A stretch of DNA of 64,000 nt from Dudresnaya verticillata (taxonomy: Eukaryota), in the NCBI GenBank assembly GCA_977862235.1, contig OZ374558.1, forward strand, positions 1,364,001-1,428,000. Direction: 5' to 3'. Both the position numbers and the translations under genes were made by a program. Shown piece after piece: positions 2,565 to 50,248 of the stretch. Every line of letters starts with the position of its first letter. Within the stretch, counting starts at the first letter, position 1. The notes below the pieces were generated by a model. It had not been told where the DNA came from. It saw only the letters and a program-made list of their open reading frames with translations, and made no database searches.

Positions 2565-2918
2565 GCATCATTACAATTACCTAATTACAAATAAATCAAC
2601 TACTTGAATCTTATTGGTGGTGCGCGCAGACTCCAGCAAGGCGTACAGTGCTACTGTGTCGCTGCACTCCGCTTCGGCTTTTGGCGCCAGCACACCAATG
2701 CGCCGGGCGCGAGTCGGCTCAACCGTCGTCCGCACTCCGAAACGGCCGCTTCACCACACCAAGGCTGAAAATTATCGCCGTCTTGGCCTTAATCATTTGT
2801 TCGAGCCACTTCTTTCTCACACTTGCGGAAGATGATTCGGGTTCTGTAGAAAACCCTAGAAGTTCGACATCGTTGCGACAAATATAGGCGTACATGTGGC
2901 GCACGGGGGCCCGGGCTT

Positions 2919-2935
2919 CACTACAAGTCCATTTC
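2919..2935 (+). repeat. Left TIR of the CACTA element
   Basis: CACTACAAGTCCATTTC; CAATAAA follows at offset 28 at both ends. Confidence 0.93.
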
Positions 2936-4959
2936 CGGGCCAGATCAATAAAGTCCCATAAATGTTATTCAGGGCCGGGCCATACAATTACTGCTGCGGC
3001 GTGATGAAAATTCTGTACAGAAATTATATCCGTATCGGGCCAGACCTAGAAAACAGGACTTAAGCCCCCGATAGATTTGGCGCCACGGCGCAGCCCGTTT
3101 AATCATCTTTGTGCGCCACGTACGTTGCGCTTGCACGATGAAGGAGGTGATCCGGACAGTTAAACCCGTTGTCTCACGTTAACACGTCTACGCCTTTACG
3201 ACATCAGTTGCTCAGTACTGAGACCACCTCAAGCGTTTATCGTATACACCGACTTGACTTTGCTCAGACCAGTAGTATTGCTGTTCTGAACAATTACTGT
3301 GAAGTTCGAGACGCGCTTACATGACATTCTGAAACATGAGCAGTACTGCTCCTGCCCAACGAAGCAGTCGTTCTACAACAATACTGGCATCACTATTCTA
3401 CGATACAATGAATGCGTCAGGTCACCGTTACCATCGTCCGCGCGCGTTGCGTTTGTAGCTCCAGAGTAATGAAAAGTTATAGTTTGCTTTACTTGTAAAC
3501 ATTGGTCATAGTATCCTACCTACGCTAATCGTCAGAATATTCCCGGTACGAAACCGGAAAGATTCGAACAATTGTTCGAACGTTCACGCATGCCCACCTG
3601 ATACCTTTACGGTAGAAGAAACTTTCAACGCTTCATCATCAACACAGATATATGTGCCGTACGGCTCCTTGAAAGCTGCCATGCTCGCGTACGCAAATCG
3701 ATTTTCATCAACTTGAGATTCACATGGTGACGAGACCTCTCAGAGAATGTCAGAGAATGAGGCGGACCGTGGGGTGAAGCTCACTTCGCCGCGCTCGGCT
3801 TGTAGTACGACAGGCTAGCGAGATTGAGCGCAAAGAAAATTTGTCAGATGCGTGGGGTCAGACGCATACGCACGACGATCGTCGTCAATGCGTACGCGTC
3901 TGACCCGTCGCGATCGAACGCTGCATCAGCAAATCTGCCGAAAAGGCGGACTTTCGACATTTCTGTCATCTGATCCTCGAGAACCGCACGTACGTGCGCG
4001 TGCATCGCACAATGCATGCAGCCATAGCAATGGAGAACGCCACGCAAAATGCATAATACGAGCATGCGGTGGCCACGGTTGGGGGTTGTTCTGTCAGTAT
4101 CGATTATTTCTGGACCGTCATTGGCCAGATTTGTATTTCTGAAACGAGCTGCGGTACTGTATGTCCACTGAGCCAGTATAGTGAACTGTACATATCTGTA
4201 AGACGAGATCCCATGATCTCACAGTGTCGAGACTTGAAAAAGATATTTAAATGTCCCATTGCCCAATCAGAGCTCAATGGATTGACATCATTTCAACGCT
4301 TATTGGTCTTCGTGATGCAATGAATATACGCACAGTCAAACGGGGTCTTCCATGTTTAATAAGGGTAAAAACAGTTTGCAGTACTGCACTGTAATCCATG
4401 GTCCCATGCCCACGTGGAGCTCGACTATGCTACCACCATTCGGGGTCTGTATGACCTATACCCTGCACGCGCCTACCATATCAATGAATTTGCTCGTACC
4501 AGCGCTCGTTTTTTTCTCTTCTGAACATCTTTCCTGTACTTTCGAAACTCTCTATTTGTTGGTACAGGCCATACCCCCTTGTAAGTCTCGTCCGATACGT
4601 CTAATGATCTGGAACTGCAGTGGGAGTAAATATCGAAGCTTTTACAGAATAGCTATTGTTCGACTTCCAGTACTGGTCAAGAACAAATACGCATATCTGA
4701 TTTAAATTCCACAGAGCAGAAGAGGTATTAAATTGATATTTATTGAAATACCATGACACCGTGCTTTCGATAGTAATACTGGTAGCTTGCCAAGCTGTAC
4801 AGCTGAGCACAACTTAAGTTACTGAATGCATTCACTGCATGCAGTAACGAGGTACGGATCCGAGGTAAAGAATATTCTCTAAACGAAATGAAATAGCTAC
4901 GCATTAATATTAAGGGGTTGCGCAGCAGATTTACTAGAAACAAATATTTAAGGTTAGCG

Positions 4960-7900
4960 TCAAGCAATTCTTGGTGGGTACCCATTAACGCGTCTTTGGA
5001 AGAACATTTTCCCGCCTTGTAATAAAGTTTCGCAGTGTCTGACCTCCCCTTTATCTGCATCGAACACACAACTCCGTACGGAGTTCTCCCCGTTCTGACA
5101 AAAGTGATACAACGCAACCCTTCGTACGCTGGGATGCAATTGGAGAACACGAAACGACTGAGAACTTAAAGGTTCTTCTATATGAAGAATAGAGTTTCCA
5201 GATGGTTTGCAACGCACGCAAAGCACCCACACACTATCTGGTACCAGAAGTGCACATAAAACAACAAAAAGGTAAGGTTTCGCATCAGGGCTGGTATATG
5301 GTACCAGAAAGGGTCTTCCAATATCTTCAGGACTGAGATATGCTTGAATAACAGTGTTGAAGTAAATGCAATCGAACGCGGCAGGGGTTCCTATTTGCAC
5401 GCCATTGTTTCCAACCCTAATTCTGTTCACCAACTTATAAAGTTGAGGGATAGAACTATCTCCTCGACTGAGCCGTTCAGTGGAAGGATAAAATGCATTC
5501 AGGCTTTTCCAGGTTGATGTAAGGGCGTCCTCTACATCCCTCTCCGGAAGGCAAAGAGCTTTGGCTACATCCTGCGCTGTCGTACGACTTTTGCATATCC
5601 ATTTCGATGATTTCTGTACAGAAAAGTTTCCGGCTCTTCCTTGCTTCCCTATCTGCTTTTCTAGAATGCGGTTAATTTGTCCGCTAATGGCCGCGTCAGC
5701 TTTTGCCAGAATGTCGGAATCCTTCTCCTCGTCGAGCAAATGCACTTCTTCTCCGAGCAGCAGCCTTCGTTCGAAGCGCTTCTTTTGGATTTCGTGTTCA
5801 GGAGAACCGGAAAGTGCTAGCAGTACTGCTAGTCTTCCTTGCCAATCATTCCCCACACAATGATCTATCGCCGAAAGGTGGGAATTTTTCTGGTTGCTTC
5901 TTTGAAGACATCGTTTCAGAGGTTGGTGCGCATACTCAAACACCAACTCCACAAACTCTCTAACATGTCCGAAGGCAGGTATGGAGTGTTCATAGAGTTC
6001 AATTAGACGGTGGAGGTTTGGTTTATCCAGCAGTTTCCTCTTCTCTTCAACCTCTGTACAGAGCTTTTCGACACCTTCCACGTACCGTTTGGAGAGTACT
6101 CTCAACTCCGATATATAACTCATATTACTACCCCGGACGGTATCATAGGCCTTAAACCCATCCAGTTCTTGCTCTGGCCACCAATAAGTGAATGCCACAA
6201 GCCGCTGGAAAAGTTTGAGAAGCTCCAGAGTTCGGTCGTATTCAGTACGGTTTGATCGAATGAAAGCTCTTACTATTGTGAACGCCGGTACCGACACAAC
6301 TAAGACACAGAATGTTCCCGAAAGGCTCATTGTGTTCAGCTTCTTGACATCCTCATTAAATATTCGCTTCTGTTTTATAAGTCTATTTTTAGTGAGACCA
6401 GCACATATTCTGGCGTCCGCCTGTATTCTTAGTTCCTTTGTTGGGAGGCTGAGAAACATCGCTAGCATAATGTTTTTAGACAGTCCTGTCAAGAGATGAT
6501 CTGGTGCCACGAGATTGGAACAGTACGCGTCGAACAGTCCTGTCACGACGGGTTCTCCTTGAACATTCTTCTGAATGCCTTGTCGTGCGTCTTGCAAGGA
6601 GTTTTGGAAATATAGTAGAGGACAGTTACTGTCTGAGGCTTTGGATTGTCGTACGAGTCCAAGGAAGCTTGCATCTGCGTCCGCAATGCCATTTTCTCTA
6701 ATAGACGTATGTCTCTCGCCGTGTCGAAGGAAAGCGGAATTCCTTGCGTGAACCTGTGTTGTATACCCATACCTCGTCCCATCAGCCTGTGATTTAGGGA
6801 GTCTTCGGAAGGAACACAAAGTGCACGGAGCATTTCCAACATGACCGACGACGTCAATCGTGCCCGCGGATGCTGGGTAGTCCGCAACGTACCCAACGAC
6901 GTCGATAAATATTTTGACTGCCACACCGTCCGGTGTGAATCCATCTACTCCTTCTGAAGCTGCCTTAACCAAGTCTGCAACTATGAATCTCAATACCTCA
7001 TTGGATGACACTCCGGGAGGTGTTAAGCTAACTATCCGTACGGATGAAGCTGACCTTCGTGCCTCTGGGGGTAACGAAATGGGGAGCATGTAACAACCTC
7101 CAGCTGACCCTTGAGAGCTCATTGTAACAGACGTTTGAAATTCATCACAATATAAGAGTACTCTATATACAACGTATGGTTGCCCTCCCTTCTGAAGGAT
7201 TCCATGCTTTTTGTTACTGCTCCGACTGGAAGGGAGATTGGGGAACAAACTGGTTCCGGGCACATAGCAGACCCACTCAACAACATGTTGTATTAATTTG
7301 TCCGGCTCTATTGTTACTATCCTGCAATTGGTCTCAGTAAAACTCCGTACGGAGTCCCATCTTATCCAAATGACTGTCTTGGAAGCCTCTCCGTCCTCAT
7401 TTCTCCAGAACCGATGCACAAGAATAGGGAAGACAGATGAGGGCGATTCACACGTATTTTGCTTTGTATTGCGTAGAAGACAACATATGTCTGAAGGGAG
7501 TACCCCCAAGGCAGAATACTCAGTATCACTTCTTGTTCCGGGTCCGGATGCAGAATCTTTTAAACATTCCATCACTTTCTTCTCGCGTTTAGATAAGTGT
7601 GCAAGCTTTACGGACCTTTCAAAGCTTTTTGTTGTCTTTCCATTTGCTCCAACGGACCAGACAGTGACAATGAAAGCTTTAAAGCTGTAACAACTGCCAG
7701 TACTGGACAGCGAGAATCCTGTTTTAAAGGCCGGCCGGGTGTCTGAACAGTTGATATAGACCTTGTCTCCTGGGACGCATCGTACGACGTGCCCATCATG
7801 TTCTGCATATACTTGGTCACATGAAAGTAGAACAGCTTCTCTTCTCTGCACCATATCGGAGTACTCCAATTCATTATCCCTCACATTTTCTTGCGGCACC

Positions 7901-8919
7901 GTACTGCAACTAGGTTGCCTCTCTCGGCTTATAAAGTTGGGGAACATCTGTTCGAACAGAGAAGGCGTGCAAACATCCAGCTTTGCCCAAGAACTCGGTA
8001 GGACAATGCGGACGTCTTCTTTCTGTACAGAATTACACGTAAAAATATTACCTTGTGGCCGTCCGACATCATCAGAATCAATAGGTATGGAAGGTATGGA
8101 GTACTCCAGGGTTCCTGGAAGGGTCCCGGATATACCGCTCGGTAGATCCATGGAAACCTGATTCTTGCGAGGCAAGGAGACCAGCAAGCTTTTGGGGAAG
8201 CAGTTTTTCACAATGGTCATGAAGTATCCATGTGCGCGCTTGTAAGGGGGAAGAACAAGTCCGTTCTCACCTGGACATTCAGTACTGAATTCTTCTATGA
8301 GATCCTTCAAAAAATCATACTGTTCAACTGTGAATCGTACGCTTCCTACTACACACAATATAGCAGTAAGATGAAGAGGGCTCTTCCATAAGGAAAGAAG
8401 CTTTTTCATTTTTCTCAGATATATTGTCCTGTTAGTAAAAGACTCGACGTTCAGAGAATGAAGTACTTCTGTCTCAGGTAGCGTGCTCTCTATGTCGTCA
8501 GACGGAAACGAGGGGTACTCGACCTCATGCTCAGGGGCTGTGGTGAACATCTCCTCTGCAAGGTTCTCAAAACGACTGAAAGTCGTACCATGGTTTGTGG
8601 TGGAGTCCTCCTGAAAAACACTTTCCCTATCGCCTCCAGCTCGCAATTCATTTGAGGAAGCCCGTACGGGTTCTCCTGTAAGTCCTTCATGCCATGGTAT
8701 GTTATCGCGATCTGCAGATGTGGGTTCTTGTTCGCGAACGTCGCAAACATCCAAGTTCGTCGTTGCGTCCAATTCACGTCGCGGTCCACTACGCCGATCG
8801 GAACTTTGAGAGTAGTGTTGCCTTGTTTGAAGGATAGAGGACATCTGCCGATGTTGCTGTTCCCATGAAGACTGTACAGTTCTTCTTCTTCTCTTCTTTG
8901 AATTTGGAGAGGGATTCAT
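4960..8919 (-). CDS. CACTA-type DDE transposase, 1319 aa, uninterrupted
   Basis: Motifs LLYCDEF, VADYPA, GHVGNAPCTLC, APDHLLTGL, KPNLHRL...IPAFG...FEYAHQPLK in the order typical of CACTA/Plavaka-like transposases; N-terminal basic NLS-like stretch. Confidence 0.88.
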   Translation of the reverse strand: MNPSPNSKKRRRRTVQSSWEQQHRQMSSILQTRQHYSQSSDRRSGPRRELDATTNLDVCDVREQEPTSADRDNIPWHEGLTGEPVRASSNELRAGGDRESVFQEDSTTNHGTTFSRFENLAEEMFTTAPEHEVEYPSFPSDDIESTLPETEVLHSLNVESFTNRTIYLRKMKKLLSLWKSPLHLTAILCVVGSVRFTVEQYDFLKDLIEEFSTECPGENGLVLPPYKRAHGYFMTIVKNCFPKSLLVSLPRKNQVSMDLPSGISGTLPGTLEYSIPSIPIDSDDVGRPQGNIFTCNSVQKEDVRIVLPSSWAKLDVCTPSLFEQMFPNFISRERQPSCSTVPQENVRDNELEYSDMVQRREAVLLSCDQVYAEHDGHVVRCVPGDKVYINCSDTRPAFKTGFSLSSTGSCYSFKAFIVTVWSVGANGKTTKSFERSVKLAHLSKREKKVMECLKDSASGPGTRSDTEYSALGVLPSDICCLLRNTKQNTCESPSSVFPILVHRFWRNEDGEASKTVIWIRWDSVRSFTETNCRIVTIEPDKLIQHVVEWVCYVPGTSLFPNLPSSRSSNKKHGILQKGGQPYVVYRVLLYCDEFQTSVTMSSQGSAGGCYMLPISLPPEARRSASSVRIVSLTPPGVSSNEVLRFIVADLVKAASEGVDGFTPDGVAVKIFIDVVGYVADYPASAGTIDVVGHVGNAPCTLCSFRRLPKSQADGTRYGYTTQVHARNSAFLRHGERHTSIRENGIADADASFLGLVRQSKASDSNCPLLYFQNSLQDARQGIQKNVQGEPVVTGLFDAYCSNLVAPDHLLTGLSKNIMLAMFLSLPTKELRIQADARICAGLTKNRLIKQKRIFNEDVKKLNTMSLSGTFCVLVVSVPAFTIVRAFIRSNRTEYDRTLELLKLFQRLVAFTYWWPEQELDGFKAYDTVRGSNMSYISELRVLSKRYVEGVEKLCTEVEEKRKLLDKPNLHRLIELYEHSIPAFGHVREFVELVFEYAHQPLKRCLQRSNQKNSHLSAIDHCVGNDWQGRLAVLLALSGSPEHEIQKKRFERRLLLGEEVHLLDEEKDSDILAKADAAISGQINRILEKQIGKQGRAGNFSVQKSSKWICKSRTTAQDVAKALCLPERDVEDALTSTWKSLNAFYPSTERLSRGDSSIPQLYKLVNRIRVGNNGVQIGTPAAFDCIYFNTVIQAYLSPEDIGRPFLVPYTSPDAKPYLFVVLCALLVPDSVWVLCVRCKPSGNSILHIEEPLSSQSFRVLQLHPSVRRVALYHFCQNGENSVRSCVFDADKGEVRHCETLLQGGKMFFQRRVNGYPPRIA

Positions 8920-11061
8920 TGTGAATACTTCCCACTTAGTGTGTTTAGAAATTTAGAAAGGGATTACTTAGGAATTGAGTGCATAAGTGGACAGTGTTTG
9001 ATATTCAGCACGTCTCACTCAATTCAATAACCTTCGTACGAAGATGTGCAGTATTGCAAGCATAATTTTCCTTGTGAACAAATATAGAGTTAAGATCCGT
9101 TTGAAGTTGTTCTCCTGACTGGGACAGTGCTGTACCCTGTTGCGTAATCGGCGTGTCGTGTTCGTAAACACTACTACTATTGTCAAGATCTGAGCCACAC
9201 ATATGTATGTGTTTTTAGTATGAACAATAGATTATGCTTCTAATTTATGAACTATGTTACATTTGAATGGGATGAAGCAGGATCTAATGCAATTTACCTA
9301 GATCTATGGTATGTTTGTACTGTGATAATACCGAGTATCGATTGGATTCTTTGTTCTCGTTTCAGAATTTGCGAACGTACGTTGCTGTGTGTTTAAATAG
9401 GAAGTCCTATTTATTAGTAAAACAATTTCAGTCTGTTATCATAGCCCAAGGTACAAATAGAGAGAGTGTCAATCAAGAGTTCTATCCATTAAGTTTAGTG
9501 GTTCAGATATATATATCTGGCAGTTTTGAAACGGTGCAGCAGGGTACCCTACACATCGAGTCCTCGGGTCGGGCCAGCAACAGGTCCGACCTGTGGATAT
9601 ATATCCAAATGCACTATTGTATTGAGCTGTACAGCTTCTTCAAAGATGAATGGATTATTCATTAAAAATAAGCACTTAGATCCTCATCATGCCGTTAACA
9701 AGAAATATTTCGCACGAGGATGTCTCTGTGATGTACAGCGTAGTCCCTGTGCATCACGGGACAGGACTGTGGCGGAGGCAAGTTTCGAAACAATAGTTAC
9801 ACTGGCGTTCAGTACTGCAGTGCTGGGCTATTATATTTGAACGTTCATGAACGTTCAAATATAATAGCCCAGTGGGATAATGAAGGCACAAAAGTATCGC
9901 TCTGGAGCAATAGGATTAATGGTCCGCGACGACATGTCGCTCACGACAATTGCCGTTATGCAGCCGGAAAGGATCTCGAGATTGTGATGCTATTACATGG
10001 CTACAAGATGATGACCGTACGGCTCAATCAGCCGTTGCGAGCACTCGCATGTAATTTGATTGGCCGGCCTTAGGAAAAATCTTCTTTGTGCCCTTGTGCA
10101 ACGTGCATCACAGATCTCCATATTCGGCTCGAGTAGCGTTCGCAGCTGCCCAGATATATGTACATACGTGTCAATAAGCATATGCTCATATGTTCAGTGT
10201 GTGGGCCCAGGCCGACTGAACTGGAATTGATTCCTTCCGTCACCTTCGCAGTGGCCCGAACAACAGTACTGCTGCTATTGGGCCAGATCCAGCGGCCCAC
10301 TCCGACGCACCGCGGTGCGAGATCTCGCTGCGGAAACGTGCACACTTCTGGCCCTAGTGGCGCCATGGCCATGTATATTTTGTTTATTATTCTCGCGGAT
10401 TGGTACTGCTATGAGCCGAACATGTGAGCCGCACGGCCACGCACGCGACCTCGTATCTTTCGAGGACCATGTGGCCTGGGAAACCGCAGAGGGTGCCTGA
10501 AGCTGCAGCTCGCCATGCGCCATGGCGCCAGCATGCACTGCTGAACCGGCTCCGGAAGCCGCGATAGACGTTCAACGTCCGGAGTTCCGAACCTCGCCAA
10601 GCGACCCGCTACGGCGCTGCTGCGAAACATGTTTCGCCGCCGCTATCATATGATAGCCGATATCGGCGCTCAGCGCCGCAGCCTGTGGCGGCATGTCGAG
10701 CGCGACATGCGTGCACGCGCGGTCGCTCGGGCCAGACCGCCAGTACTGGCGCGATCAGTGTGTCATCGTCGGTCCAAGTGTTCTGGGGCAATTTGATGGC
10801 CTATTTCGGTTTGGCGCGCAATCATGTGTGAGTCTGGGTATTTATCGGATCGACCGGCGCGCTCGCCCCCCTCTCCCTCCCCCAGCATCCACACCACCAC
10901 AACCTGTCGGCTCCCTTGGAGCCCTTCCCTCCCTCGCTACACACTCCTTTCGCTCCTCCCTTACCCTACCGCGGCTGGCCGTGTGTACACGGCCCTGTGT
11001 GCGCGCGCGACGAGACTACTGCGCGCCCCATTCCCGCTGTGTGCCTTCCTGCGCTCTCGCC

Positions 11062-13938
11062 ATGCGCACGCGCTCATCCGAAAAGGCTGACGGGGCGGCG
11101 CCTGCAGCACATGGGACCGGTACCGGTACCCCGTCTGCGCAACCCGCTGGACAGGTACCTGTCGTGACGACACCACAGCAGGATCCTGCACCGCCGCCGT
11201 CTACCTCAGCCTCAGCTCCACGTGCTGCGGACAATCATGCTCATGGAAGCGATGAAATCTCTCCCGCAGTCGCCTTGCAGAGTGGTCCTTCTCAGACACC
11301 TGCCGGTACCGGCGAGGCAGATCAGTTTTTTTCTTCGGGCGCTGTGTTCAAGTTGCAGCCGGCTCTCCTGTCCGGGAAGCACGACTGGAACCTAGAGCCT
11401 TCGACCAATAACAGCTACTGGCAGTTGGTGGAGTCGTCTATCCCTTCCTCTAGACGGGGTGATATGAACGCGTACGCGTACAGTGCTGCGAATAAGGGGG
11501 TCGCCATTGCGAAGGATGCCTTCGCGAAGCTGAACAGCATCCGTTCGCTGTTCGCTTGTCCGCAAACCCTGAAATGCGACCGTACGTTCGCCAAGGAAGC
11601 GAAGGATGTGCCGTACCTCGATGAAATGGACATCTACCTTAGCGATGAGAGCTTGGATGACGGGGCCCTGTCCGCATCAATGGTGCCGATTACCAAACAC
11701 AGGTTTGGGGGAAGATGGTTCCACGCTTTCAATTGCCGTCCGGCGCTATGTCGTGAGAACTACTATCGCCGTCGCTTCAATCTTTGGATCCCACTGGGCC
11801 GTTGCGAGGGTCCATATCTCAGTGTTGAAGAAAAGAAGGACACATACCCTACGGCCCAAGGCAAGGTCGCTCACATGCAGCACCCAGCGGCGTTACCGGT
11901 ACCGGTTCCTTTTGCTGTGTTCTACTTCTTCAAGGAGCTAAAGGCTGCTGGAGAGGAGTAAAACACGAGTCGCCTCAAGCGTTTGCTGTTTGCTATTCAG
12001 GTCGAGTACTCGACGCTTGTACTTCATGTGTGGTGCAGCGAGGCTCTGCGTGGTTCTCGGATGTATATCATGAATGACAGTACTGTCGACCGCATTGAGG
12101 AGACGATGCAAGGTGTCGAGACGATCGACGATGTCCCTACCAAGGGCATCGTCGAGATGATTCGCGAGGTGAACAAGTTTGCGGCTGGTTGGCACAACGA
12201 AATGGTCTTCTCAGAAGAGCCCCGAGATGACCCTTCCTTCTTTGTTTGGTCTGAGCGTGGAAAGGTGGGTATCGACAAAAGCCGTCCATCTGGCCAGAAG
12301 TACATCATGAGTTACTACAACAGAAAAATTGTAACCAGTACTGGTGCAATTGTTCCGGACGAATACAATCGTTCGACGCGAGCTGGAATAGGCGTCGGAA
12401 GCTCGCGAGGTGCCGGTGCAGCAAACCCAGGAGGGAGGGATTATGGAGGAGGAGATCGCGGAGGCTACAATAGAGGCTACAATAGAGACGTCATGGATAG
12501 GCGTATCTCCGAGTATGAGCTTCGTCAGTTTCCGGGTCTCCAAGACACCCTAAGGGAACATAATGCATTCAGTCATGGCCAGCCGACCGTACGGTCCGTC
12601 ATCAACATCCTTATCCAGGACTACACCTACCTGCGCGGAAGGGTGTCAGAGCTGGAAGGGCGCCCGCGTGAGTACTCAGCTCAAGGCCTCCTCAACTCTA
12701 TCGTGGAAAGGTTTGTTCCGCCCACCACTCGCGGGCGACTGCCAGCTCCCTCAGCAAACAGGGACAGTGAGCAGCATGGATACGATCGCGGTTACGGAAG
12801 TGGCAGAACTGGCGAGGATATAGGTGGCTATCATGGTTACAGTGGACCTGCAGATGGCTATAGAGGATCGTACGATCGTCATTATGGGGAGCGTCATGGG
12901 ACCCAGCAGCCGTATCGCAGTCAAGGTTACTACAATTCTGGAGACTACAACTCCAGAGGTTATAAGTACGATGACGGGTACAATGCCGGTACCGGCGACG
13001 GATATGGTTACAGTGGTGGATACAATGGTGACGAAAACCGCATGGACCCGTATCACTCGCACAAAGATTACGGGAGTTCTTCGCGAGCTGTTACTGGTCA
13101 ATACGGTCACGCAGGTTCCTCGTACGAAGAACCGACGCAATATCACGCGCCGCAGGAACAGCCGATGGATACCAGTGATCCTTACCGAAGCTCGCGTTAT
13201 CCTGCTTCCCGTGCCCCAGCTGTCCGTGCGCCTACCTTTCAGGAGGCTTTCAAGCGTAACGGCACATCTCAAGCAGGACCTAGTGGCTCAGATGAAGCCG
13301 GTCCGAGCAGCTCAGCTCAAGTTGCTCCCAGTACTGGGACGCATGTCGAGGAGGAAGTGCTAGACCTTCGTCCCCCGGAGACCCGCACTCGCCCAGGCAC
13401 GCCGATTCGAGAGCCCGAGCGTGGCCCTGGCAGAAATGGTCCTGTACAGGAATCTGAATTGCGCCGCACAATTACGCCGTACGTTGAGAAGGTTTCGGAA
13501 CGGGAGAATGGTGGTGCCGGTACCTGCAAGGGACCTAAGCAAACTTCCACGCCTAGTCAGCCGTCTCCCTTCGCCCCAACCTCGCACCAGAAAGCCTTGA
13601 GGGATCGCCTTGCTCGGGAGAGTGCGAGCGCTGAAAAGTCTCGAGGCAATGAAGCCGTACGGCATGTGAAGGAGGGCTCGGGCGTGCCCGGCCCTGCCCG
13701 CGTGCAGTCTTCAATTGATGATGGAGAGGTTGCATCCAAAGAGCTGGCTTCCAGCACCGCTGCAAATAAGAAGAGTAGTCGTCTGTCTGGCTCCCCCGCT
13801 ACGAAGAAGCTCCGGTCCGACGAGGGTCCATCAGCCTCCTTATGTGCTGATGGACCCGGCGCTGCTCCGCCTACCGACAAGACTAAAGCGAACCGTACGG
13901 TTGGCAAGGGAAGGACAGAGGAATCTGATGAGAGTTGA
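11062..13938 (+). pseudogene. CACTA cargo ORF2, ~958 codons with one in-frame TAA (11959-11961); globular domain, coiled coil, G/Y/R-rich and S/P-rich tails
   Basis: Listed ORFs 10693-11961 and 11983-13938 are in the same frame, separated by one stop; ATG 11062 follows a pyrimidine-rich leader. Confidence 0.75.
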
Positions 13939-14225
13939 GTACCAATTCTGTGCTTGAGCTTGTGGAATCGTTCGCTACTCGAGTGGCAAGTACAAGGTCT
14001 TGTGTGCTACATGGAGCTCATTCTAGAATTCATGTAGGATATAGGTCTCCCCGGTGCCAGAAAGTGAACTGTGACCTTGAGTGGCACCATAGTTGCAATA
14101 TTGCTGTTGTAGTACAGCTATTGGTATGGACCAATGGTAGTAAATGTACGAGATTGATGTGTTTTGTGTTTGAAAATTATCTTTTTATTAACACGAAGCG
14201 TGCGTTTCAGCAAGCAGCCAGAACG

Positions 14226-14665
14226 TGCGGGCGTACGCCATTACTTGCATACAACCTAACACAATTATGTTTACCGTGTTGTATCGTATCTATCCCTGCT
14301 GACGAATGTAAACTTCGTAGTACTACGTTTGTCTCCAGATTCAATCTGCAACTGCAATCTGTATAGTTGCATCTGTATAAGCATTGAATACATCACTAAA
14401 ATCGCGTAGGATTGTTGTAGCACATCGTTGACGTATGTTAACATAGTAGTACTATAGTAAATGTATATACTTTTGGATCCAGAATCCACGGTTGTATCTG
14501 CATGAACATGCAGATAACTCACGCTTCGTGAGTTTAAGAATACAGCCAGCACTTGCGGGCGTACGCCATTACTTTAAGTTGCGTACAACCTAACACAGCT
14601 ATGTTTGTCCCGTTGTGTCGTACCTATCCCCGGTGACGTATGTAAAAATCGTAGTACTACGTTTC
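14226..14665. repeat. Diverged ~110-bp direct repeat (14226-14330 and 14554-14663) in the ORF2/ORF3 convergent intergenic region
   Basis: Both copies read TGCGGGCGTACGCCATTACTT...TACAACCTAACACA...TCGTAGTACTACGTTT. Confidence 0.85.
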
Positions 14666-16050
14666 TTGCGTGAAGCAATTTTATTCATCGCACGGGACTG
14701 CGCTAGGTCGTCGTCGATGTACATATATGTAAACATCGTAGTTTGTCGGAAGAATGCGAAGAACAGCACGTTCGCGCTTGTTGGGAGGGAGCAGTACATG
14801 TACAGATCCGCTAGTTTTCCATCAAGTTGAGATGATTGGTTTAGGAATGATCCTACCAAGATGCATATGCATCTTAGATCATATGATCTGTCCACTCCAC
14901 AAGACCCTCAAGAAGGAGTATACTCAGATGAGTGTCTTCATAACACGCATAACCTGCTTGCATAAGCACGAATGCAAAACGCATTACATTTGACAGACAC
15001 GCGTTACACAGAACAGCTTTTGTGCTCGCAGAGCCCGTAGCATTTCGCGCAGATCGGGGTCCTGCTGCATTCCACCAGTCTTGATGACGACTGCGACATG
15101 GGCGTCGCGGTATCTCACAAAATCCTGCGGGACAGGGGGAGCTCGCCACCAGGTTGCCGCTTCACGGTTGCCATCTCTACACGCGCTAGCCGTGCTACGG
15201 TCATGCCCGCGCTATAGCGCGCTATATATATATCGGTTATAGCGACCTATAGGTTTGTCTTCCACTCGACCGACATCCCAACCTGTGGGGCTTGGCAAAA
15301 GGATTTCCCGGCGACGAACTGCGCGCTTGGCCGACGATAGCGATGGGAAGAGGTGCAGAAAGTGGACGTGTTACGGACTTCGTACGAAGTAAATGCCAAT
15401 CTACAACAATGGCACATTTGAATAGAAGTGGATAAATAGCAAACGGGAATATCCAATTAATGTACAACTGAAACTTCTTTCCCTAACGTGCGTACGCACT
15501 GACCCATTTCTGTGAGACCCAAATAGTTCAACAGACAACAGATAAATAATCCTATGTATGATACTAGCATCCTTACGGATTACATCCTTACGGATAATGG
15601 CATATGCCATTCTAGAATTTAGAAAGCCCTGTCGCAGTGCTATGTAGATGTAGTGAGAACTTCAGAAATACATGTAAGAACAGCAATTGACTGCTGCGGC
15701 TGCAGCTCTGCAGTCGGTCAATTTCTGTTCTTCTAAAGTTATTAATAATCACATAAAACTCCGTACGGATGGGTATCGATCGGTCTTCGAAGGCAACCAT
15801 CAAACTGGAATGCGTGTATATAGCATTATTATATGATTACTTTTAAATCGAATAAAACTAGAGATGTTGAAAAGGTCCAGTAGGAAACCATACGCGCGAA
15901 GTAGCGCTACTTATCAGCTTGAGGGTTTTAGGGATCGCTAACTTTGAAAGTATTTAATGGTACCATTCCTCGCATGTGTGCGTACGCGACTGATTGTGTA
16001 TACGTATCCAATTAAAGTACTTTACCTGTTGAGTATCAATATATTTATTG

Positions 16051-18681
16051 TTATAGACTGGCTATTCCATTGTCCCATTGCTCCTCAATATTATTGCCAG
16101 AGTTACATTCCCCCATATCCGCCTCCCTGTCCTCCTCCCTTAAATCCACTCCAACTTCTTCCTCGTTCAGCCTTTTGAACTCCTTTTCGTGCATGCGTAC
16201 GCATTTTCTTTCCAAAATATTCTTCTGGTTGTACGTTCCAGGGAGCAAATCCTGCAAAGAGAGGCTGTCCAGCACAATCTTGCATGGGTCGCAGAATCGA
16301 TTACTCACAAAGCTTGTTGAGTCCAGATTCTTTTGCACTATCTCCTTGATGGTGTGACCCAGAATAACAACACATCGCAATGCAGACTTCTGCGTACGCA
16401 TGAAAGCAGTTTCACCGGATACCCGGCAATATTCGACACAAATGTTCATTGCGACCTGTACCATGTGAAAAGAGCGACGGATTGTTCTTTTCTCTCCACC
16501 AGAGTGCTTCCTGTTGTTCCCGGTACCGGAAACAACATAAACGTCATACTCGCTCAGCAGAACGAAATCCTCATACTCTTCTAAAATGTTTGAGAAGAGC
16601 TTGGAGTTGTAGCTATCAGCCTGCAGGATTTTGGATTCGTCCGAATCTATTGAGCAAATCTCAGTGTCGGGGATTGCACTGATTTGCAGATCAGTACGAA
16701 CAGAGCCTTTCCCACTGTTATCCGTACGGATAGCTTCAGAGAGTGCACCATTTTCCCTCGCCTTGCCCTCCGAACTGGGTCCATTCCAAAATGCAATACT
16801 GGATTGCTGGTCTTGTAACTCAGTACTGAGTGCTTTCCAGTTCACAAGCATGAACCCGATGTTTTGGAAGAAGGACAATTTCACAGCATCACGGGATGAA
16901 TGCAGCTGGGTACCCAGTTTCCGATAGACCCTAAGTGCCCCGTGGATTGCCACTTCGTCGGAAGTTGGGTTCTCCGAAGGGATGAGTTCACGAGATGCCC
17001 TGGACTTCTCCAACTGTGCCCTGGCGTGTAGAATGTGGTCCACATTCACAGCTCCAGACTTCAACCAATCCGGACGGATTATTTTTGCCTGTGGATGCCC
17101 TTGCAGGTGTTCACCTCCAGAATAATCAGAAGGGCCTTCCAATTTGACTTGAGATGTTAAAGACGGATTAGCAGCGGAGGATCAAGTTTGGTCTTTGGCT
17201 CGTACGAGACTAAATGGACCATTGGATTTCGGGTCACAAGTTTGGTCTTTGGCTCGTACGAGACCAAATGGACCATTGGACTTCGGGTCACGCCCAGACG
17301 TCTGTCCGGAACCCTTTCCTCCTGGACAGGACCCTTTTGTGACCGGCGACTCCATAAAGATCCCGAACGGGTCTCGAAATATGTTGAAGAATAGGTTTTG
17401 AACAACAGTAAACTTGAACTGGCCATGATGCCTGCCTATTCCTTCCTCCCATTGCTTTCTCGTGGCAGCAGGCTGCAAACTGAACATCAAGGCTCCCAGA
17501 CCAGCTGCACCACGGCTTCCCACTGAAAGTTTCGTGGAGGGCACCGTATCGTTACAGTTTGTACGGGATCCATCAGGTTTCGAAGAACTTCGAAACAAAT
17601 TGCAGACCAGTACTGGTACATTAAACGACATAATACGAGAAATAAGCATTGGATTGACAACAATATCAATGGAAGGCGTCAATGCATCTAGTTTCTTCTT
17701 CATATCAGACTTTGTTGACTTTCGGAAGGTTTTGCCGGTACCGGTTGCACCTTGGCTTCTGGACAGCAGCTGAACATGCCCACGAAGATCTTTCACTTGA
17801 TCCTGAAGGGAACTTACAAGTGATACAATATTTTGGTTTGCGTGCAGGACCTTGTCAGTGGAATCAGCCAGATCCTTCTTCAACTCCGTACGGAGTGCCT
17901 CCAGAAGTCTAGACTGCGCGTTCGACAATGCTGTGACGATTTCAATATCATCGCCTGCTATTCCCTTCTTCGAAACCGTAGCTCTTCTCTTCACGGCTTC
18001 CATCTGTGCCTGTACAGGCCCTTTGAGTGGTGCGTAGTAGTCATCAGGGCGTGGAGGTCCAAGCGGTGCTTTGACAAAAAGGTCTATTTCTTCAAGCTCT
18101 TCGTCTTGATTCACACCGGACGGTGTGATTCTAGAATCAGGATTCCCTTCTTTAGAAAGCTGAGCTCTCGGCCTGAAAGGAGGACTTAAAAGAGGAGTCT
18201 TGGTGTTGTACAACAACCTTCTCTTCTTTGACGGCAACGGTCTTCCATCTGTGTCCCGAGATGCAGTACTGCCTGGGCTTCTGTTAGGTCGTTCCGCAGA
18301 CACTCTTTTGCGATAAGCGAGGAGAGGTGCTACTGGAGTATCCAGATTGGAAGAGTCCGGGCTATTCTTCTCGTTGGAAAGGGCTGCCGAATGACGGGGA
18401 GGCGTCTCCGGAATTTTCTCAAGTGCTTCGAGACCAAGTTTTTCCTTGCTCCGTCCGGAGTCGTCTAATCCTTCTCGATTAGTGCCCTTCAGTTTCCTCG
18501 CTGTTCGAGGAGAAGTGCGGGTACCCTTGACCGTGGATCGGGGTGATACAGTGGATGCATCAGGGGCTGCAGACGCAGTCTCCCTCCTTCTCGATTCAGC
18601 ACGAGCCATTGCCTGAGCCTGAGACGCGGCCTTGTACCTAGCCATTTTGTCAGACGTACGTCTTTTCCGTGAAGGAGCCAT
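16051..18681 (-). pseudogene. CACTA cargo ORF3, ~876 codons with one in-frame TGA (17182-17184); basic NLS-like motifs, coiled coil, unknown function
   Basis: Listed ORFs 17182-18744 and 16051-17142 are in one frame with only that stop between them; ATG 18681 gives MAPSRKRR. Confidence 0.72.
17184..17291. repeat. 54-bp in-frame tandem duplication in ORF3
   Basis: Two copies of AAGTTTGGTCTTTGGCTCGTACGAGAC...CGGGTCAC with 2 mismatches. Confidence 0.95.
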
Positions 18682-19723
18682 AATGCTAGAATGAGTTGTG
18701 TGCGCGTCTGATTCACAGTCTGTAACCCCGTTGTCGTCCGTCACAGCGGAGCCAGAACATACACAAAGGTAAGGAAGACTGTATTTGACTATGAACGTCT
18801 TCCCGTATGAATGATCCAGACAGGCGCAGTGGGCATCCAGTACGGGTCCAGAATCTTATACATGATTGAGAGGAAGATATTGGTGCATGCAGAGCGCGCC
18901 AATAAAGAAAATCCAGTTCACACCTAATAGACAAGCGCTGATCTTCGTGTTTCACAAACCGTTTCGCTTTTGCGCGAGCACATAGTTAGTAAAGCAGTAC
19001 TGATTTCGATCTGAACAGACACAATGGCGGGAAAGCATATGCAGACGTAGGTCTATGGGCAATGCTGTGGTATCGCAATACTATGTTTACATTGGAGAGC
19101 TTCACTTGAGCCACCCGTACGGGTGGTTCAGAGCGTATGGGATACCCGGAGATGATCCAATGAGTTTCAGTTCCTCGGTTATAATGCGACAGTGTCTGCA
19201 ATAGATTCATGTATAGGCCCAAGAACAATGATATGGCAGATTTACAAGGAATATAATTATTGTTTTACAATCCTGAAAAGGCTGTTCGGGAACAACGTGT
19301 CTGTAGGAGCGGGAGAAGAGGGTGTAACTCACGCTGTTACCGAGGCTTCTGTACAGAAATATCTCCTAATGAAACCAATGAAACCAACGAATCACTGGTC
19401 TGGCCCGATAAAATCATTCTTTGAGGAAAAGGTGAGCGAGACACTTGCAATTACGTGTCACTATCTCTTTCCATCCGGAGCTCCTGCAGGAAATGCGTAC
19501 GCAATGCTTTGCTAATGTGTTAGTGTAGCACAGTAATGTACATTAGAATACCCGTCGCGAGAGCGCAGGGCTCCATGGAGCGACTGCAGTCGCGCGACTC
19601 TGGCGTGTATCTTATGCACGCCCACAATCTACTCAACGCACTAGCAGAAGCAATTGTCGACCGTACGGTCATTCGCGAGCAACACCTGATCAAGTATCAT
19701 CCCATCGAGGCAACTTTCTCAAG

Positions 19724-21381
19724 ATGAGTTAAAGGCCTCGGCGAACCACATCCTCTGACCCCTTTGTGGTACCACGGAGAGGGGAGTTTATTGAAGTCCT
19801 TTGGACACTTGACCAGATCCCCGAATCCCCGGAATCCTGGTGCATTGCTGAGGTTCTGCACATATTTGAAGACTACGCGAACGGTTGCATTGGAAGGGGT
19901 TTAATCAGATATACGAGGACCCAGTACTGGGAGGAGCAAGTTCAGAACGTCACATTCCATTGCGACTACATCCTTCGGGTCTTCGACGAGGACGCGAACA
20001 CGTCCGACCAAATCAACGGTACCGTTGAACTAAACAAAGGTTCGTGCGGAAGAGAGATTCGGGAGGGGCATATGAGGCGGAGGAGGACCCAAGATTGTTT
20101 TGGAGGTACACTGCGCGTACCTATCCGTCTGATGAGCAGGATGCTGATGAATCCGACGAGGACTGGTACGAGACAAGGACTTCTGTACAGAAGTCAAAAT
20201 GTGGATCCATGCTTCGAAGCGTCCGCGGCACAAAGCTCAATGCAGGCATACTAGACAGTGGCACTGAAGTGAAGAGGCTTCGGGAAGCATATGCTACAAT
20301 TGCTGTACAGCAAGAAAAGTTGAAAGTGATGATGTTGGACCATTCCAAGAGACTTCATGATATTGAAAGCGCCCATGGGCAGGATAAGTACCTGTACAGG
20401 TCTAGTATTGCTCCGAGCCCATCGCAGCTCCGTTCGCGAGTACTCGCGCACTTACGACATAAACTCGCAGTAAGACTACAAGCTCCAATCAAACCGCTCC
20501 CACACGTACTGGGAAAGCGGTCTCTAAAGATGAAGGATAGTTGCGAGGAAAGGTTGCCATTCAGCGCCTCTTTTGTTGACGGAGTACTCCGTGGTGTAAT
20601 TAAGGTAAGGGTGGAATGTGAGCTTGCTGAATTCGAAGTCATCGCCCGCAGTATGAGATCGAGAGGCGAAGGCGTTCGTCTTCGATTCTACCCTGCATTT
20701 TCCGAGACACAGGTTCCATTGCTGAATAGCGAATGGTTTTCCATTGTCTTTCCGTGTTTCGCAGATCTATGTGCACAAATTGGAATCGAATCCGTCTCGG
20801 ATAGATTGGAGATGCTCCGTAAGTGCGGTACCGCATCCGGGAAGGACCTGCTTCGAATTCTCCGAAGTTACTTCTACCATGAAGACCGCAAAAAGCCAGC
20901 GATATTATATGTTGCTGCATCACTGCCACCGAGGGATTCGGACGCTTCCCCGGTACCGGGGAGTGACGGAAGCGCCAGGGCTATCCTCAGCGATGACGGG
21001 CAAAACAGTCCTATGTATGAGTCGTACGACATACCTGTGCTTCACCGCGAAACCCGTCAGTGGAATAAGGAAGAAGGACGCTTTCTTTCCAGATTAACTT
21101 TGCATATGGAGAAGGAGCAGAGGCCGTCCGGAAAACTCATCCGTACGGAAAGAGCAGAGGAGGCTTTCATGGTTACTTGGCGACGCTCTCCTGAAGCGTC
21201 GGCAAGAGTATGGTCTCGAACACTTGTCAGTACTGACTGTGTATTAGGAACGCTGGAGATATCTCTTCCTTTTGTACAAACTACCGGAATCAAGCTCTGT
21301 GCTGAGTTTGGAGGGCTCGCAAACGATGACGTGCTACGCGGCGCGTGCTGCCTACACAGCTCAGCGACGTCGCTGCACTAG
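19724..21381 (+). pseudogene. CACTA cargo ORF4: Tudor/Agenet-like N-terminus, coiled coil, unknown C-terminal domain; TAA at codon 3 and a frameshift near 20045
   Basis: ATG AGT TAA in frame with ORF 19766-20254 (RGEFIEVLW...WCIAEV...LIRY), which overlaps ORF 20044-21381. Confidence 0.65.
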
Positions 21382-21669
21382 TACTAGATTAGTATAGCAG
21401 TAGCTGTAAAGCTCTTACAAACATGTCCAACATGCATGTTGCGTAAATCAGCGTACCCTTGCGAGTGAATTTGTGCGCGCATGCCCACGCGCGTACGCGC
21501 ATGGGCCCCATGGGGGCGTCCAGTACTACAGCAGGTGATATTGGTCTGGCACGGGTCGAGTATTGTTCCCGCAGCACATTTCTTGCTGGGCCAGACCAAT
21601 GCCCAGTAATGAGAAAATTTTAGAAATAAATGTATTGCCCCAGCGCAGCATTTTTATTGGGGTTTTCCA

Positions 21670-21686
21670 GAAATGGACTTGTAGTG
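21670..21686 (-). repeat. Right TIR of the CACTA element
   Basis: GAAATGGACTTGTAGTG is the exact reverse complement of the left TIR. Confidence 0.93.
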
Positions 21687-22520
21687 TTTTATTTCCTCGC
21701 CATGGGCGTCGATAACCTCGTCGACCGACGGACGGTCGCCTGGAACGGCTCAATCGCCGTTGGCACGAACACGTCATCGACGATTGGTTACAGACGCGCG
21801 CGTGCCACAATGCAGCGCCGCGCACGCCCGACGCACTGTACGGCGCGACGCTGCAGAGCGGATCTGGATGATGCATCGGGATTAACGAGGTGTAAGGGAA
21901 TTTACTGTCAGGTTGGCCCGAATCCCGATCAAATCCGGATCCGACATCCAGATCGAACATCGGGATCCGCTGAAAGGGAAATACACTTGTAATACGGTGC
22001 CAATCGCGATCCGAATCCGCATCGCCTACAGCACCGGACGAGTACGTCTGCAAGACGTACGCCCCGGCGCACGGCGGCTGCATTGTCCCGGGACGTGTCA
22101 GACGCACGCCCAAGCGACACGCGTCCCGGGTTTCCGCGCACTACGTCATGCAGCCGCCGCACCGCGGCAACACAGCATTACTTAGCTACCCCGTCTAGGA
22201 CGTAACAGTAAAGCCCCGGCAAGCCGGTTTGGGTCTAGACGTCCCTTCCGCGACAGCGCGCACCCTACCGCTGCCCGGAAGCATAAGCGTCTACCTATCC
22301 GTGTTTCCACGTTCCTAACCGTTGTTAACGTGTTTCCTTTTGGGTTTTTTGCCCCTTTTATCCACTCGCTCTGGGTATTTACAGTCCGCCCTAGGCGTGT
22401 TCAACCTGCTCTACCAAGTTCGCTATTAGCGGCTACCCACCGGGCTCCCGAACGGCCCTGAGGTGTTCTCCGTCTTCAGCACGACGTTTGCACGACAGTA
22501 CACGCGGCGTCGCTAGTTAA

Positions 22521-26490: not shown

Positions 26491-27139
26491 CTCGCTTACG
26501 TGTACCCTCTCCTCCACTCAGGATCCCAGTAGTAAACGACACAAAAACTCTCAATCCAGGGGATCTCTTCGTGCTTCACACGCGTGGCAAATAGCAATCA
26601 TGCATTTGCAGTGCTCCTTCCAAGGGTTCAACGCGTTACGGCAGGCCATGTCAGGGGCTACATCTGTTTATGGTTGAATTGTGAAGCAAGAGAATAGACA
26701 ATTACGGCAGAATACCGCATTTGGTTAGTAGCCTACTACATTTGCTCGTGTGGTGTGTATTACTTGAAGGCGAGAGGAGAGTTGAAGTCCAAAGTCGGGA
26801 TATGTCAAACATGAGCCGGCGTTGATTTCGAGCAGAAATCAGAAGGTTTGCAAAGGCAGCGAGCTTTCCTCGCCGCCGACTCTTTCTTGGTCTCTCCCTT
26901 GAAGCTGACGCTTGACTGGATTGCTGACCGGCCCCTTATGGCGGCAGTCGCCATTTGGAAGAAATAAAGTGACGCTCTCCGACATGCGTCCCGCACGGCT
27001 GTCAAGGCAAGAGTGAAAAAATCCTCAGCGTCCGGGCACAGCCTGTACGTAAAACAAGTCAACCGCAGTTTCAGTGTCACAGTTTTCAAACTTCGAAGAC
27101 TGCTCTACTCTTCTCGATGCTTTTTCCATTGTACTCACT

Positions 27140-28711: not shown

Positions 28712-29466
28712 TTCGATGCCAACCTTCTTTCTATGTCTCACAGTAAATTGCAATCAGCACAGCAAATGTTTTCACCACCTTGTTAGCTAAGAAGCTCTAC
28801 GCTATTTCTACTCACATTGCGCTCTTTTGTAGTCCATTAAGGATCGGGAGGAACCGTCTATTGTACAAAACTTGTAGGAGAATCAACCACCGAACGCTTG
28901 CTTTCGAGATGCCCATTGATGTGCAAGACGATGCGGTAGGTTTAGAACGTGAGCACGTGATGGGGAACAGCTGCTCTTGCAGGCATGACCCGCTCGCAAA
29001 GTGGCCTACATGCGTCAAAGCGTTTCAGCTGGCCTATGTCCAAACCTATCAGCGCTTCACCCATGACATTTGAAAGGAAGACCCCTCCCGCAAAGATTCA
29101 GGTCAACGTGAAAGGTGGTAGGTAATGTTGTCAGTGTATCTTGTCTCAGAGAGGGCATACAGGCCCTCTCTGAGACAAGATCAGCCTGCACAGGAGCAAT
29201 TATGTTGACTTGCTTCGAATAGCGCCCCCGCGCAGAGAGATGCGACCCAACTCGCCGAAATATTGTTTGCGAGAGAGATCGCAAGGTCTCTGTCTTGTTG
29301 TGCGGAAACGTCCTTCTTAAGAGCTGCATGCGTCAAGTCCTTCCAGAACAAAACAACCTATACCATTGCGGAACCCACAACCTTCTCTCTCTTTCCTGCC
29401 CTAAAGAGACCTGCTCCTATCCGGATACCCTCACGGAACCACCCACCACCCTTCACCCAACCCAAT

Positions 29467-30096
29467 ATGTCGCTCCGAATTGTCCCCCTTGTGTGCGCAC
29501 TCTTTGCATCACTCCTCATCGTTAGTCGTTTTGCAGTAGCAGCTCCAACAGATGAGAAAATGTCTCAGTCGACATTGTACAAACCAACCAGATTATTTTC
29601 CGCCTTTCAGCACATTGTCGAAAGCGTGGATTGGGTTGGTCTTCTCAACTCTGTTTCTCAATACAACTCTGGAAACTACCACAACTTCTTGCACAACGAC
29701 GCCTTCGGAAACTTTTCTGAGCAAATACCCGTCTACAATCCCCCAAGCACAGAGCAAGCGAATGCATTGAAGACCAAGCTGGAAGCATTGGAGCTTCTCG
29801 CCCTCAACGCCTCACTCTCTCCGCAAAACAAAACAGACTGGCAACCATTTGCTTCGGGACTAGTCTTTTCTTTCGGCAATGAAACTGCTGCCATGGCTTA
29901 CCACTGGGAGAGACAGCGGTGGATAACATGTGGCTTTGTCAATCTTACTAGCACTGTCGTAGACAAAAATGAGTCTGTCCGAATGTGTGCTTCAATGCAA
30001 TCTGTTGGTCTCTCACCTCCGACCAGGGCACCTATTGAGGGTCTTGACTACATTCTCCCAGCCTCAGGTTCTTCCTCCAATGACGGTGATGACGAT

Positions 30097-30139
<43 letters not shown>

Positions 30140-30311
30140 ATGACGAAGAAGAAACCTCCAATCGAGACTATTATAGCGACTACTACTACAACACAAGTGA
30201 CGCCACCGAGGTTAACTTGGCATCACCCCAGGTAGTTTGTACGTATCCAACAGTTGCGCACGATGAACTTTCCATTCCGTTGCATGAGCAATAATGCGAC
30301 AACTAACCAAG

Positions 30312-39236: not shown

Positions 39237-39238
39237 TC

Positions 39239-50246: not shown

Positions 50247-50248
50247 GA

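Follow-up and report, generated by a model that had tools for sequence, protein, structure and literature searches.

A giant CMC/EnSpm-type transposon of Dudresnaya verticillata with three accessory genes and dispersed GTAC-centred palindromes

A DDE transposase binds the terminal inverted repeats (TIRs) of its element, which moves by cut and paste; in plants, CACTA/En-Spm elements encode TnpD and TnpA. Florideophyte red algae have giant Plavaka elements, which measure 17.4–19.1 kb and combine an EnSpm-superfamily transposase with three accessory genes, PAG1–3 (Petroll et al., bioRxiv 10.1101/2025.02.11.637652). That preprint, which concerns Bostrychia, leaves open by what means such giant elements avoid being silenced in red algae.

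Here we describe an element within a window of 64,000 nt, the whole stretch of D. verticillata DNA that was analysed. It resembles the giant red-algal Plavaka, as the preprint describes them, in size, in its EnSpm-superfamily transposase, in having three accessory genes and in inverted repeats that are proposed to be bound by an accessory protein. In contrast, its ORF2 and ORF3 belong to other families than PAG2 and PAG3, and its variable-arm palindromes are scattered across coding DNA, whereas the Plavaka inverted repeats form tandem arrays beside PAG3. An earlier note on this DNA had called three long cargo genes unusual; elements of 17–19 kb with three accessory genes are in fact already published for red algae in the same preprint. 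The four-gene giant plan is known; the cargo and the cis-sites appear to be new.

Ends, insertion site and transposase

The element occupies positions 2919–21686 (18,768 bp) and interrupts a solo LTR. Its ends, insertion site and transposase are as follows.

2919..2935, plus strand: left TIR, 17 bp, perfect, 5' start CACTAC
21670..21686, minus strand: right TIR, 17 bp, perfect
2917..2918, plus strand: TT, left copy of the element's 2-bp target duplication (right copy at 21687-21688)
2895..2918, plus strand: first 24 bp of the solo LTR that hosts the insertion; related LTRs start TGTGGTGC
21689..22497, plus strand: rest of the solo LTR, terminating in CA
2890..2894, plus strand: GTACA, left target duplication of the solo LTR
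22498..22502, plus strand: GTACA, right target duplication of the solo LTR
4960..8919, minus strand: CMC/EnSpm-type (Plavaka-like) DDE transposase, 1319 aa, intact, in a single open frame

The TIRs are perfect across 17 bp and 79% identical across 34 bp, giving the termini CACTAC..GTAGTG. The flanks of the element are CTT and TTT; TT alone is duplicated, so there is no 3-bp target site duplication (TSD). The right part of the LTR can be aligned with further LTRs of the window. The TIRs, the TT duplication and the solo-LTR flanks together confirm the giant CMC/EnSpm-type element that the earlier note had proposed, including its view that the flanks are two parts of one LTR (2895–2918 and 21689–22497) with GTACA on either side.

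CMC/CMCT elements of the EnSpm superfamily are recognised by CA..TG termini with TIRs and a TSD of 2–5 bp (Kojima, PMC12730594), a definition that covers the CACTAC..GTAGTG termini, 17-bp TIRs and TT duplication observed here. The fungal Plavaka A/B and CMCT clade described in that paper shares the CA..TG termini, the 2-bp TSD and the C(2)C motif, and the present transposase has a weak match to PF18759 (E 0.021, under the cut-off). The clade has TGT..ACA or CATCA..TGATG termini rather than CACTAC..GTAGTG, and its TET/JBP gene has no counterpart here. The likeness to classical plant CACTA elements extends to the CACTA termini, the short TIRs and a DDE transposase with C(2)C. The differences are the 2-bp TSD, the lack of a TnpA-family match or subterminal repeat arrays, and the four separate genes on both strands. 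No 9-mer reaches three occurrences in the terminal 400 bp at the two ends, and no TnpA-type Pfam match was found in the window's ORFs, in 72 rows of the ORF4 family or in 6 rows of the ORF3 family. The original label of a CACTA element therefore holds for the CMC/EnSpm type and fails for classical CACTA, given the 2-bp TSD and missing subterminal arrays, while the reported absence of a recognisable TnpA is borne out at the sequence level.

Residues D592, D680, E995 and C699xxC702 are invariant across 47 aligned transposases, and by analogy we assign to them the probable catalytic roles of a DDE triad whose second D is followed by C(2)C. Ahead of the catalytic E, a possible H(3-4)H motif is spaced non-canonically, with H970 invariant, E974 at +4 and H978 present in 45 of 47 proteins. 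Transposase_21 is matched weakly by 2 of 16 aligned transposases. One relative was found in genome contigs and none in viral contigs. The protein is up to 38% identical to transposases adjoining PAG2-like genes. In trees built without curated Plavaka or CACTA reference sequences, a branch with support 99 separates the ORF3-bearing loci from those bearing PAG2.

Accessory genes and their lesions

Around the transposase, three accessory genes complete the element.

11062..13938, plus strand: ORF2, 958 codons, with an in-frame TAA at 11959-11961 within a conserved domain
16051..18681, minus strand: ORF3, 876 codons, with an in-frame TGA at 17182-17184 adjoining a 54-bp tandem duplication
19724..21381, plus strand: ORF4, frameshifted near 20030 and with TAA as its codon 3 (19730-32)

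The four genes, on both strands, are ordered as transposase(-)/ORF2(+) and ORF3(-)/ORF4(+), as first noted. Gene order and orientation differ among relatives, so the two divergent pairs are no fixed layout. The genes had also been described as apparently intronless. The transposase alone is one open frame; ORF2, ORF3 and ORF4 are each broken, a point that the earlier note overlooked together with the palindromes described below. The stops in ORF2 and ORF3 and the ORF4 frameshift are, on sequence comparison, lesions or sequence errors of this copy, because homologues are open across the ORF2 stop, the ORF3 stop and the position of the ORF4 frameshift. Alignments with homologues fit intronless genes; for an intron excising the ORF3 stop, the best GT..AG candidates shift the reading frame, as judged by eye. 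Stop-codon recoding was likewise rejected, since the stops differ (TAA, TGA and TAA here; TAG elsewhere, in locus L011). All four lesions fall within ORF2–4 and none in the transposase. Preferential decay of the accessory genes is not significant (lesion placement by length alone, P=0.17).

Homologues of the accessory genes flank related transposases, so that the one-off capture envisaged in the earlier note is not what we find. An ORF3 homologue is present in 6 and an ORF4 homologue in 9 of 47 loci; ORF2 has one in L009 alone, most other contigs being too short to exclude it. Pfam and other profile searches gave neither a family match nor a recognisable DNA-binding motif for ORF2, and ORF3 has no family match. 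Protein database searches with ORF2 and ORF3 returned no match among the top candidates and near lengths, the Atlas no usable match, and PDB sequence, NCBIfam, PHROGs and Rfam nothing useful. The ORF3 and ORF4 profiles are unrelated to each other.

ORF4, with 74 family representatives, is predicted to consist of a Tudor/SH3-like barrel, a coiled coil and an alpha/beta domain without a clear structural match. The best structural match of the family model (pLDDT 85) is the RDM15 Tudor (Z 6.1, rmsd 2.1, 57 aligned), a middling match of the predicted N-terminus that is tied with non-histone SH3-like barrels. The Tudor-like domain has conserved aromatics (W34, W46, W47, Y71 and F86) and is apparently absent from several homologues. 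For the C-terminal domain (predicted pLDDT 86), Foldseek gave no match at E<=0.001 and the best VIA Z is 4.5, which is no proof of a new fold. This domain, ORF2 and ORF3 represent protein families without a Pfam or clear PDB match.

The window has no match to PF01555 or SET, the N6-methylase and SET domains of PAG2, and a four-protein PAG2-like profile found nothing in 391 six-frame pieces. For PAG3 (ParB-like, 2OG oxygenase), a shallow profile of two proteins, which we take to be PAG3-like from their motifs, was equally empty, and there is no adjacent tandem inverted-repeat array. ORF4 may be PAG1; in L004, its homologue is the third accessory gene, next to PAG2- and PAG3-like genes.

Palindromes centred on GTAC and GGCC

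The whole element is studded with short palindromes sharing a GTAC centre.

3011..21500, no strand: 94 perfect palindromes, GTAC-centred, 10-18 bp long and with arms that vary, about 1 per 200 bp, 64 of them coding
9823..9872, no strand: perfect 50-bp palindrome in a divergent intergenic region

Sites of at least 10 bp number 94, compared with a mean of 0.98 and a maximum of 5 in 200 dinucleotide shuffles; permuting arms among the element's 167 GTACs gives 4.0. The other 45 kb of the window contain 4 such sites, and GTACs on the host side are unaffected. The arms vary yet stay symmetric, with 47 distinct 12-mers among 64, and pairing falls with distance from the centre (0.73, 0.74, 0.66, 0.56, then near chance). 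The sites run from TIR to TIR, ending there, at an even spacing (median gap 164 bp). Gaps below 70 bp are rarer than expected (9 against 24.1), indicating mutual avoidance; we see this short-range avoidance alone and no periodicity of 10–11 bp or nucleosome length.

The 64 coding sites compare with about 2.5 after synonymous shuffling, and of 89 places where a site could be encoded, 61 have one. In the transposase itself such places number 23.5 per 1000 aa, compared with 12.5 +/- 3.2 in 19 homologues, and some sites lie in conserved codons without an indel (RVLL 586, NGYP 1312). Its residues 628–940 contain no site of at least 10 bp. A search for the imprint in protein sequence only, across 61 transposases, gave z 4.5 for the window's own protein, the others being too noisy. 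The non-coding DNA of the element has, in addition, more palindromes with different centres than expected (52, compared with about 7.5).

A counterpart with another centre is found in L009, the one locus with an ORF2 homologue, which has 64 GGCC-centred palindromes of at least 8 bp at a median gap of 163. The arms extend 2 bp here and 4 bp in the GTAC family, and the flanks are symmetric (CGGCCG 50, TGGCCA 33, mixed just 6). In a third family, synonymous positions preserve the pattern: comparing L009 with L024 (about 63–67% DNA identity), site codons are identical in 18 of 20 cases, against 98 of 234 elsewhere (P=2e-5). None of 31 other loci of at least 3 kb has a comparable core-centred excess.

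Cyanobacterial HIP1 and DNA uptake sequences are abundant short motifs in coding DNA, fixed and genome-wide; the GTAC sites are equally abundant in coding DNA but vary, are symmetric and are restricted to one element. Our literature search found no description of a variable-arm palindrome pattern, and the term 'palindrom' does not occur in the main text of the Bostrychia preprint (bioRxiv 10.1101/2025.02.11.637652).

Possible roles of the palindromes

We give even chances to the reading that the GTAC palindromes are family-specific sites bound by a protein that the element encodes, most likely ORF2, whose link to the sites is drawn from two elements. Selection would then maintain the sites, and because the arms are free to vary but must match, the reader would be two-fold symmetric or would recognise a small hairpin or cruciform. 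Symmetric, variable sites whose centre switches between families (GTAC, GGCC) and which reshape the amino-acid sequence of the transposase point to an unusual DNA-reading protein or to a site-directed fold-back mutation process; within the reach of our literature searches, either would be without precedent in eukaryotic transposons. The main alternative, which is mutational and which we regard as rather unlikely, holds that the palindromes are scars of templated repair: the transposase or ORF2 would nick or stall at GT^AC (or, in the L009 family, at GG^CC), one arm would fold back and overwrite the other, and purifying selection would remove only events that damage a protein. CMC-type transposases make hairpins, symmetry with free arms would be explained directly, and the decay of pairing resembles a tract length. 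The roughly 7-fold excess of other-centre palindromes in non-coding DNA indicates a general fold-back process, PAG-type relatives also have a surplus of long palindromes, and the site-free residues 628–940 fit as well. However, GTACs elsewhere in the window, on the host side, show no such effect, sites lie within conserved codons without insertion, and neither the even spacing nor the synonymous conservation between families is expected from scars; nor is a two-arm change seen at the 5 sites common to L009 and L024, which are few and coding-constrained.

A role in transposition, with the transposase or an accessory protein compacting the 19-kb element and joining its ends as TnpA and subterminal repeats do in plant CACTA, seems improbable to us. 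It would suit a very long element with short TIRs, sites from TIR to TIR and no TnpA or subterminal array, but similarly built relatives do without such sites, and an accessory gene with a Tudor-like domain, like the cargo of sister elements that modifies chromatin, indicates chromatin instead. We consider it very improbable that ORF2–4 were captured passively or are nested inserts and that the palindromes represent compositional noise: the confinement of lesions to ORF2–4 and the lack of database matches for ORF2 and ORF3 would agree with capture, whereas the recurrence of homologues beside related transposases (1, 6 and 9 of 47 loci), the size of the ORF4 family and the unremarkable lesion placement argue against it, and the palindromes exceed every shuffle.

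Taking the palindromes as binding sites, the element would be coated at roughly nucleosome spacing and, with ORF4 as a predicted Tudor reader, its copies might be kept from silent chromatin; ORF2 and the dispersed sites would replace PAG3, which is ParB-like, and the inverted repeats clustered beside it. Such self-marking against silencing is proposed by analogy with VANC acting on VANDAL in Arabidopsis (PMC5735166), likewise an accessory gene on a DNA transposon, where short motifs specific to the family are numerous and mark the element by their density. The VANC motifs, as that paper describes them, have a fixed sequence without palindromic symmetry, lie mainly in non-coding DNA and spread through tandem repeats, and binding in the present element is putative. 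We tentatively propose, at less than even likelihood, a lineage of giant red-algal transposons with a self-marking code of a new kind: about 100 evenly spaced sites per element, set by a family-specific 4-bp centre and mirror symmetry instead of a particular sequence, would be embedded in all four genes, at a price in amino-acid changes. Their reader would be the new family ORF2 with a Tudor-bearing partner, evading silencing. The sites make the escape of giant red-algal elements from silencing open to test. Among the relatives, the transposases of L001–L004 adjoin PAG2-like methylases (PF01555).

The 18.8-kb element and its classification

The element has perfectly matching 17-bp termini, each flanked by TT, and lies 24 bp inside a solo LTR (2895-22497). 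GTACA borders the LTR on both sides, and the right part of this interrupted LTR can be aligned to other LTRs in the window. The main features are:

2919-21686, transposon, delimited by terminal match and duplication
4960-8919, minus strand, transposase gene (1319 aa), the sole open frame among the element's four genes

The gene map of the window confirms the two divergent pairs described in an earlier note, transposase(-)/ORF2(+) and ORF3(-)/ORF4(+). Of these four genes, however, three are interrupted: ORF2 by a TAA at 11959, ORF3 by a TGA at 17182 next to a 54-bp duplication, and ORF4 by a third-codon TAA and a frameshift close to 20030. Homologues read uninterrupted across the two internal stops and the frameshift, and the interruptions may represent either mutation or assembly error of this copy. 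The convergent intergenic region contains a duplicated block (14192-14345 and 14520-14679, ~80% identical), both copies of which retain the same two GTAC palindromes.

The sole Pfam match of the transposase is a sub-threshold one to Plavaka (E 0.021). Homologues numbered 64 from 7990 scored candidates, one of them named (Gracilariopsis chorda), which suggests a florideophyte red alga as the host. Across 47 aligned proteins D592, D680, C699xxC702, and E995 are invariant, and the H(3-4)H motif departs from the usual form. Judged by criteria taken in part from PMC12730594, the element falls outside the classical CACTA type. The earlier note saw no recognisable TnpA, and Pfam likewise gives ORF2, ORF3, and ORF4 no match to a TnpA family. 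The preprint of Petroll et al. (bioRxiv 10.1101/2025.02.11.637652) describes giant red-algal Plavaka elements of 17.4-19.1 kb with three accessory genes: PAG1, listed as unknown, PAG2, a methylase with SET, and PAG3, ParB-like with a 2OG oxygenase. From that description, the size and gene number of our element are already known, and its three cargo genes are not the peculiarity they had been taken for. Supplementary table 6 of that preprint and the Chondrus entries it cites may already contain elements of this type. Profiles of PAG2-like and PAG3-like proteins match nowhere in the window element. We regard it as a variant among the giant Plavaka/EnSpm-like elements known from red algae, distinct from the PAG2/PAG3 type.

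Accessory genes in related loci

Cargo was compared across 47 related loci, mostly short. Homologues of ORF4, ORF3, and ORF2 adjoin the transposase in nine, six, and one of these, respectively. The ORF4 profile already contained six rows and the ORF3 profile five loci; L004, L028, and L047 match ORF4 independently. The transposase/ORF2/ORF3 part of the layout is repeated in locus L009 at ~25% protein identity, while gene order and orientation are rearranged among the other loci.

PAG2-like methylases occur in L001-L004 (three by Pfam test, L003 by similarity). Those at L001 7421-10324, L002 6630-9590, and L004 4364-7276 carry a ParB-like N-terminal segment resembling that of PAG3 and gave no match to a SET domain. 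L004 also contains an ORF4 homologue and a gene that we take, by its motifs, to be PAG3-like; on this co-occurrence, ORF4 may be PAG1. The ten loci with known cargo, six bearing ORF3 and four bearing PAG2, fall into these two groups on either side of a branch with support 99 in a quick, unrooted tree of 39 of 100 rows.

The ORF4 family comprises 74 representatives, and the predicted fold of one homologue combines a Tudor/SH3-like barrel, a coiled coil, and an alpha/beta domain. One bacterial-MAG contig (L047, JBCDHL010000159.1, 1-5652) carries a window-type transposase gene and, after it, a homologue of ORF4 (E 1e-73), and is likely algal DNA binned with a bacterium.

Palindromic sites and their possible origin

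The element contains 167 GTACs, of which 94 form the centres of perfect palindromes of at least 10 bp and 64 those of at least 12 bp, against 0.98 and 0.2 expected from dinucleotide shuffles. The remaining 45 kb of the window has four of at least 10 bp. Arm pairing is 0.73, 0.74, 0.66, and 0.56 at positions 1-4 and near chance further out. Of the 64 12-mers, 47 differ in sequence, and permuting arms among sites leaves 4.0 matches instead of 94, indicating that symmetry itself is the rule. GTACs outside palindromes occur at roughly background frequency, meaning that sites were added rather than spared. Coding DNA holds 64 sites in all three frames (~2.5 under synonymous shuffling), and 61 of 89 encodable places are realised. 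The transposase has about twice the encodable places of 19 homologues, and amino acids were thus altered too. Sites avoid one another (nine gaps below 70 bp, 24.1 expected; median 164), with no periodicity seen in their spacing within the element. Inner centres with a single mismatch are likewise in excess (14 versus 1.7).

Among 32 related loci of at least 3 kb, the pattern is present in L009 only, centred on GGCC and with the same spacing. L009 has 105 GGCCs, 3.8 times the expectation, 64 of them in palindromes of at least 8 bp (permutation mean 14, maximum 30). Eleven other loci sharing its record prefix have three such sites in a total of 75 GGCCs, so the pattern is not a trait of the whole assembly. 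The sister-family fragment L024 (1.5 kb) has five of its seven GGCCs in such sites. Codons within L009 sites are identical in L024 at 18 of 20 positions, compared with 98 of 234 elsewhere (8/9 and 40/98 in a one-frame version).

PAG-type loci have, in place of dispersed sites, long palindromes clustered upstream of PAG3, resembling the arrays described by Petroll et al. (bioRxiv 10.1101/2025.02.11.637652). Such clusters lie at L001 10690-11081, immediately upstream of a PAG3-like gene, and L002 9930-10091, with centres CATTAATTAATG. In L038 (490-4740), ACTGTA/TACAGT occurs 17 times against three expected, dispersed and non-palindromic, and is perhaps another family-specific motif. Degenerate AT-rich repeats without GGCC sites, downstream of the L009 transposase (13500-14300), are possibly a subterminal array.

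The reading we favour, with about even confidence, is that the sites are maintained by selection as binding sites for a reader, most likely ORF2, and mark the element against silencing. The reader would be encoded by the element itself, because the pattern does not extend past the TIRs and changes from family to family. ORF2 is the leading candidate, as sites are present in both of the elements in which it is known (n=2). Self-marking is suggested by analogy with VANC (PMC5735166) and by the chromatin-type cargo of sister elements. Palindromes with other centres are in excess: the non-coding DNA (7.7 kb) has 52 where ~7.5 are expected, and coding DNA has 19 (~11), which counts against a pure binding reading. 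The palindromes might instead be scars of templated fold-back, a less probable alternative, and such an origin could be combined with selection keeping the sites. A structural role in transposition appears improbable. No description of variable-arm palindromes was found in the literature listings covered, which lie outside subscription journals and Repbase.

Other features of the window

Two paralogous host genes (29209-30294 and 34514-35434; 38% identical across 199 aa, E 3e-38) have signal-peptide-like starts and no match in Pfam. The similar-looking 27053-28711 does not align significantly with them. A Gypsy-type LTR retrotransposon occupies 37790-51160 on the minus strand, with 911-bp LTRs (98.1% identical) and disrupted reading frames for the RT, RNase H, and integrase domains. 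Related LTR pieces lie near 51158-51825 and 56310-56982. A gag-like region is present as two decayed copies in opposite orientation, ~70% identical, at 83-2564 and 52988-55391.
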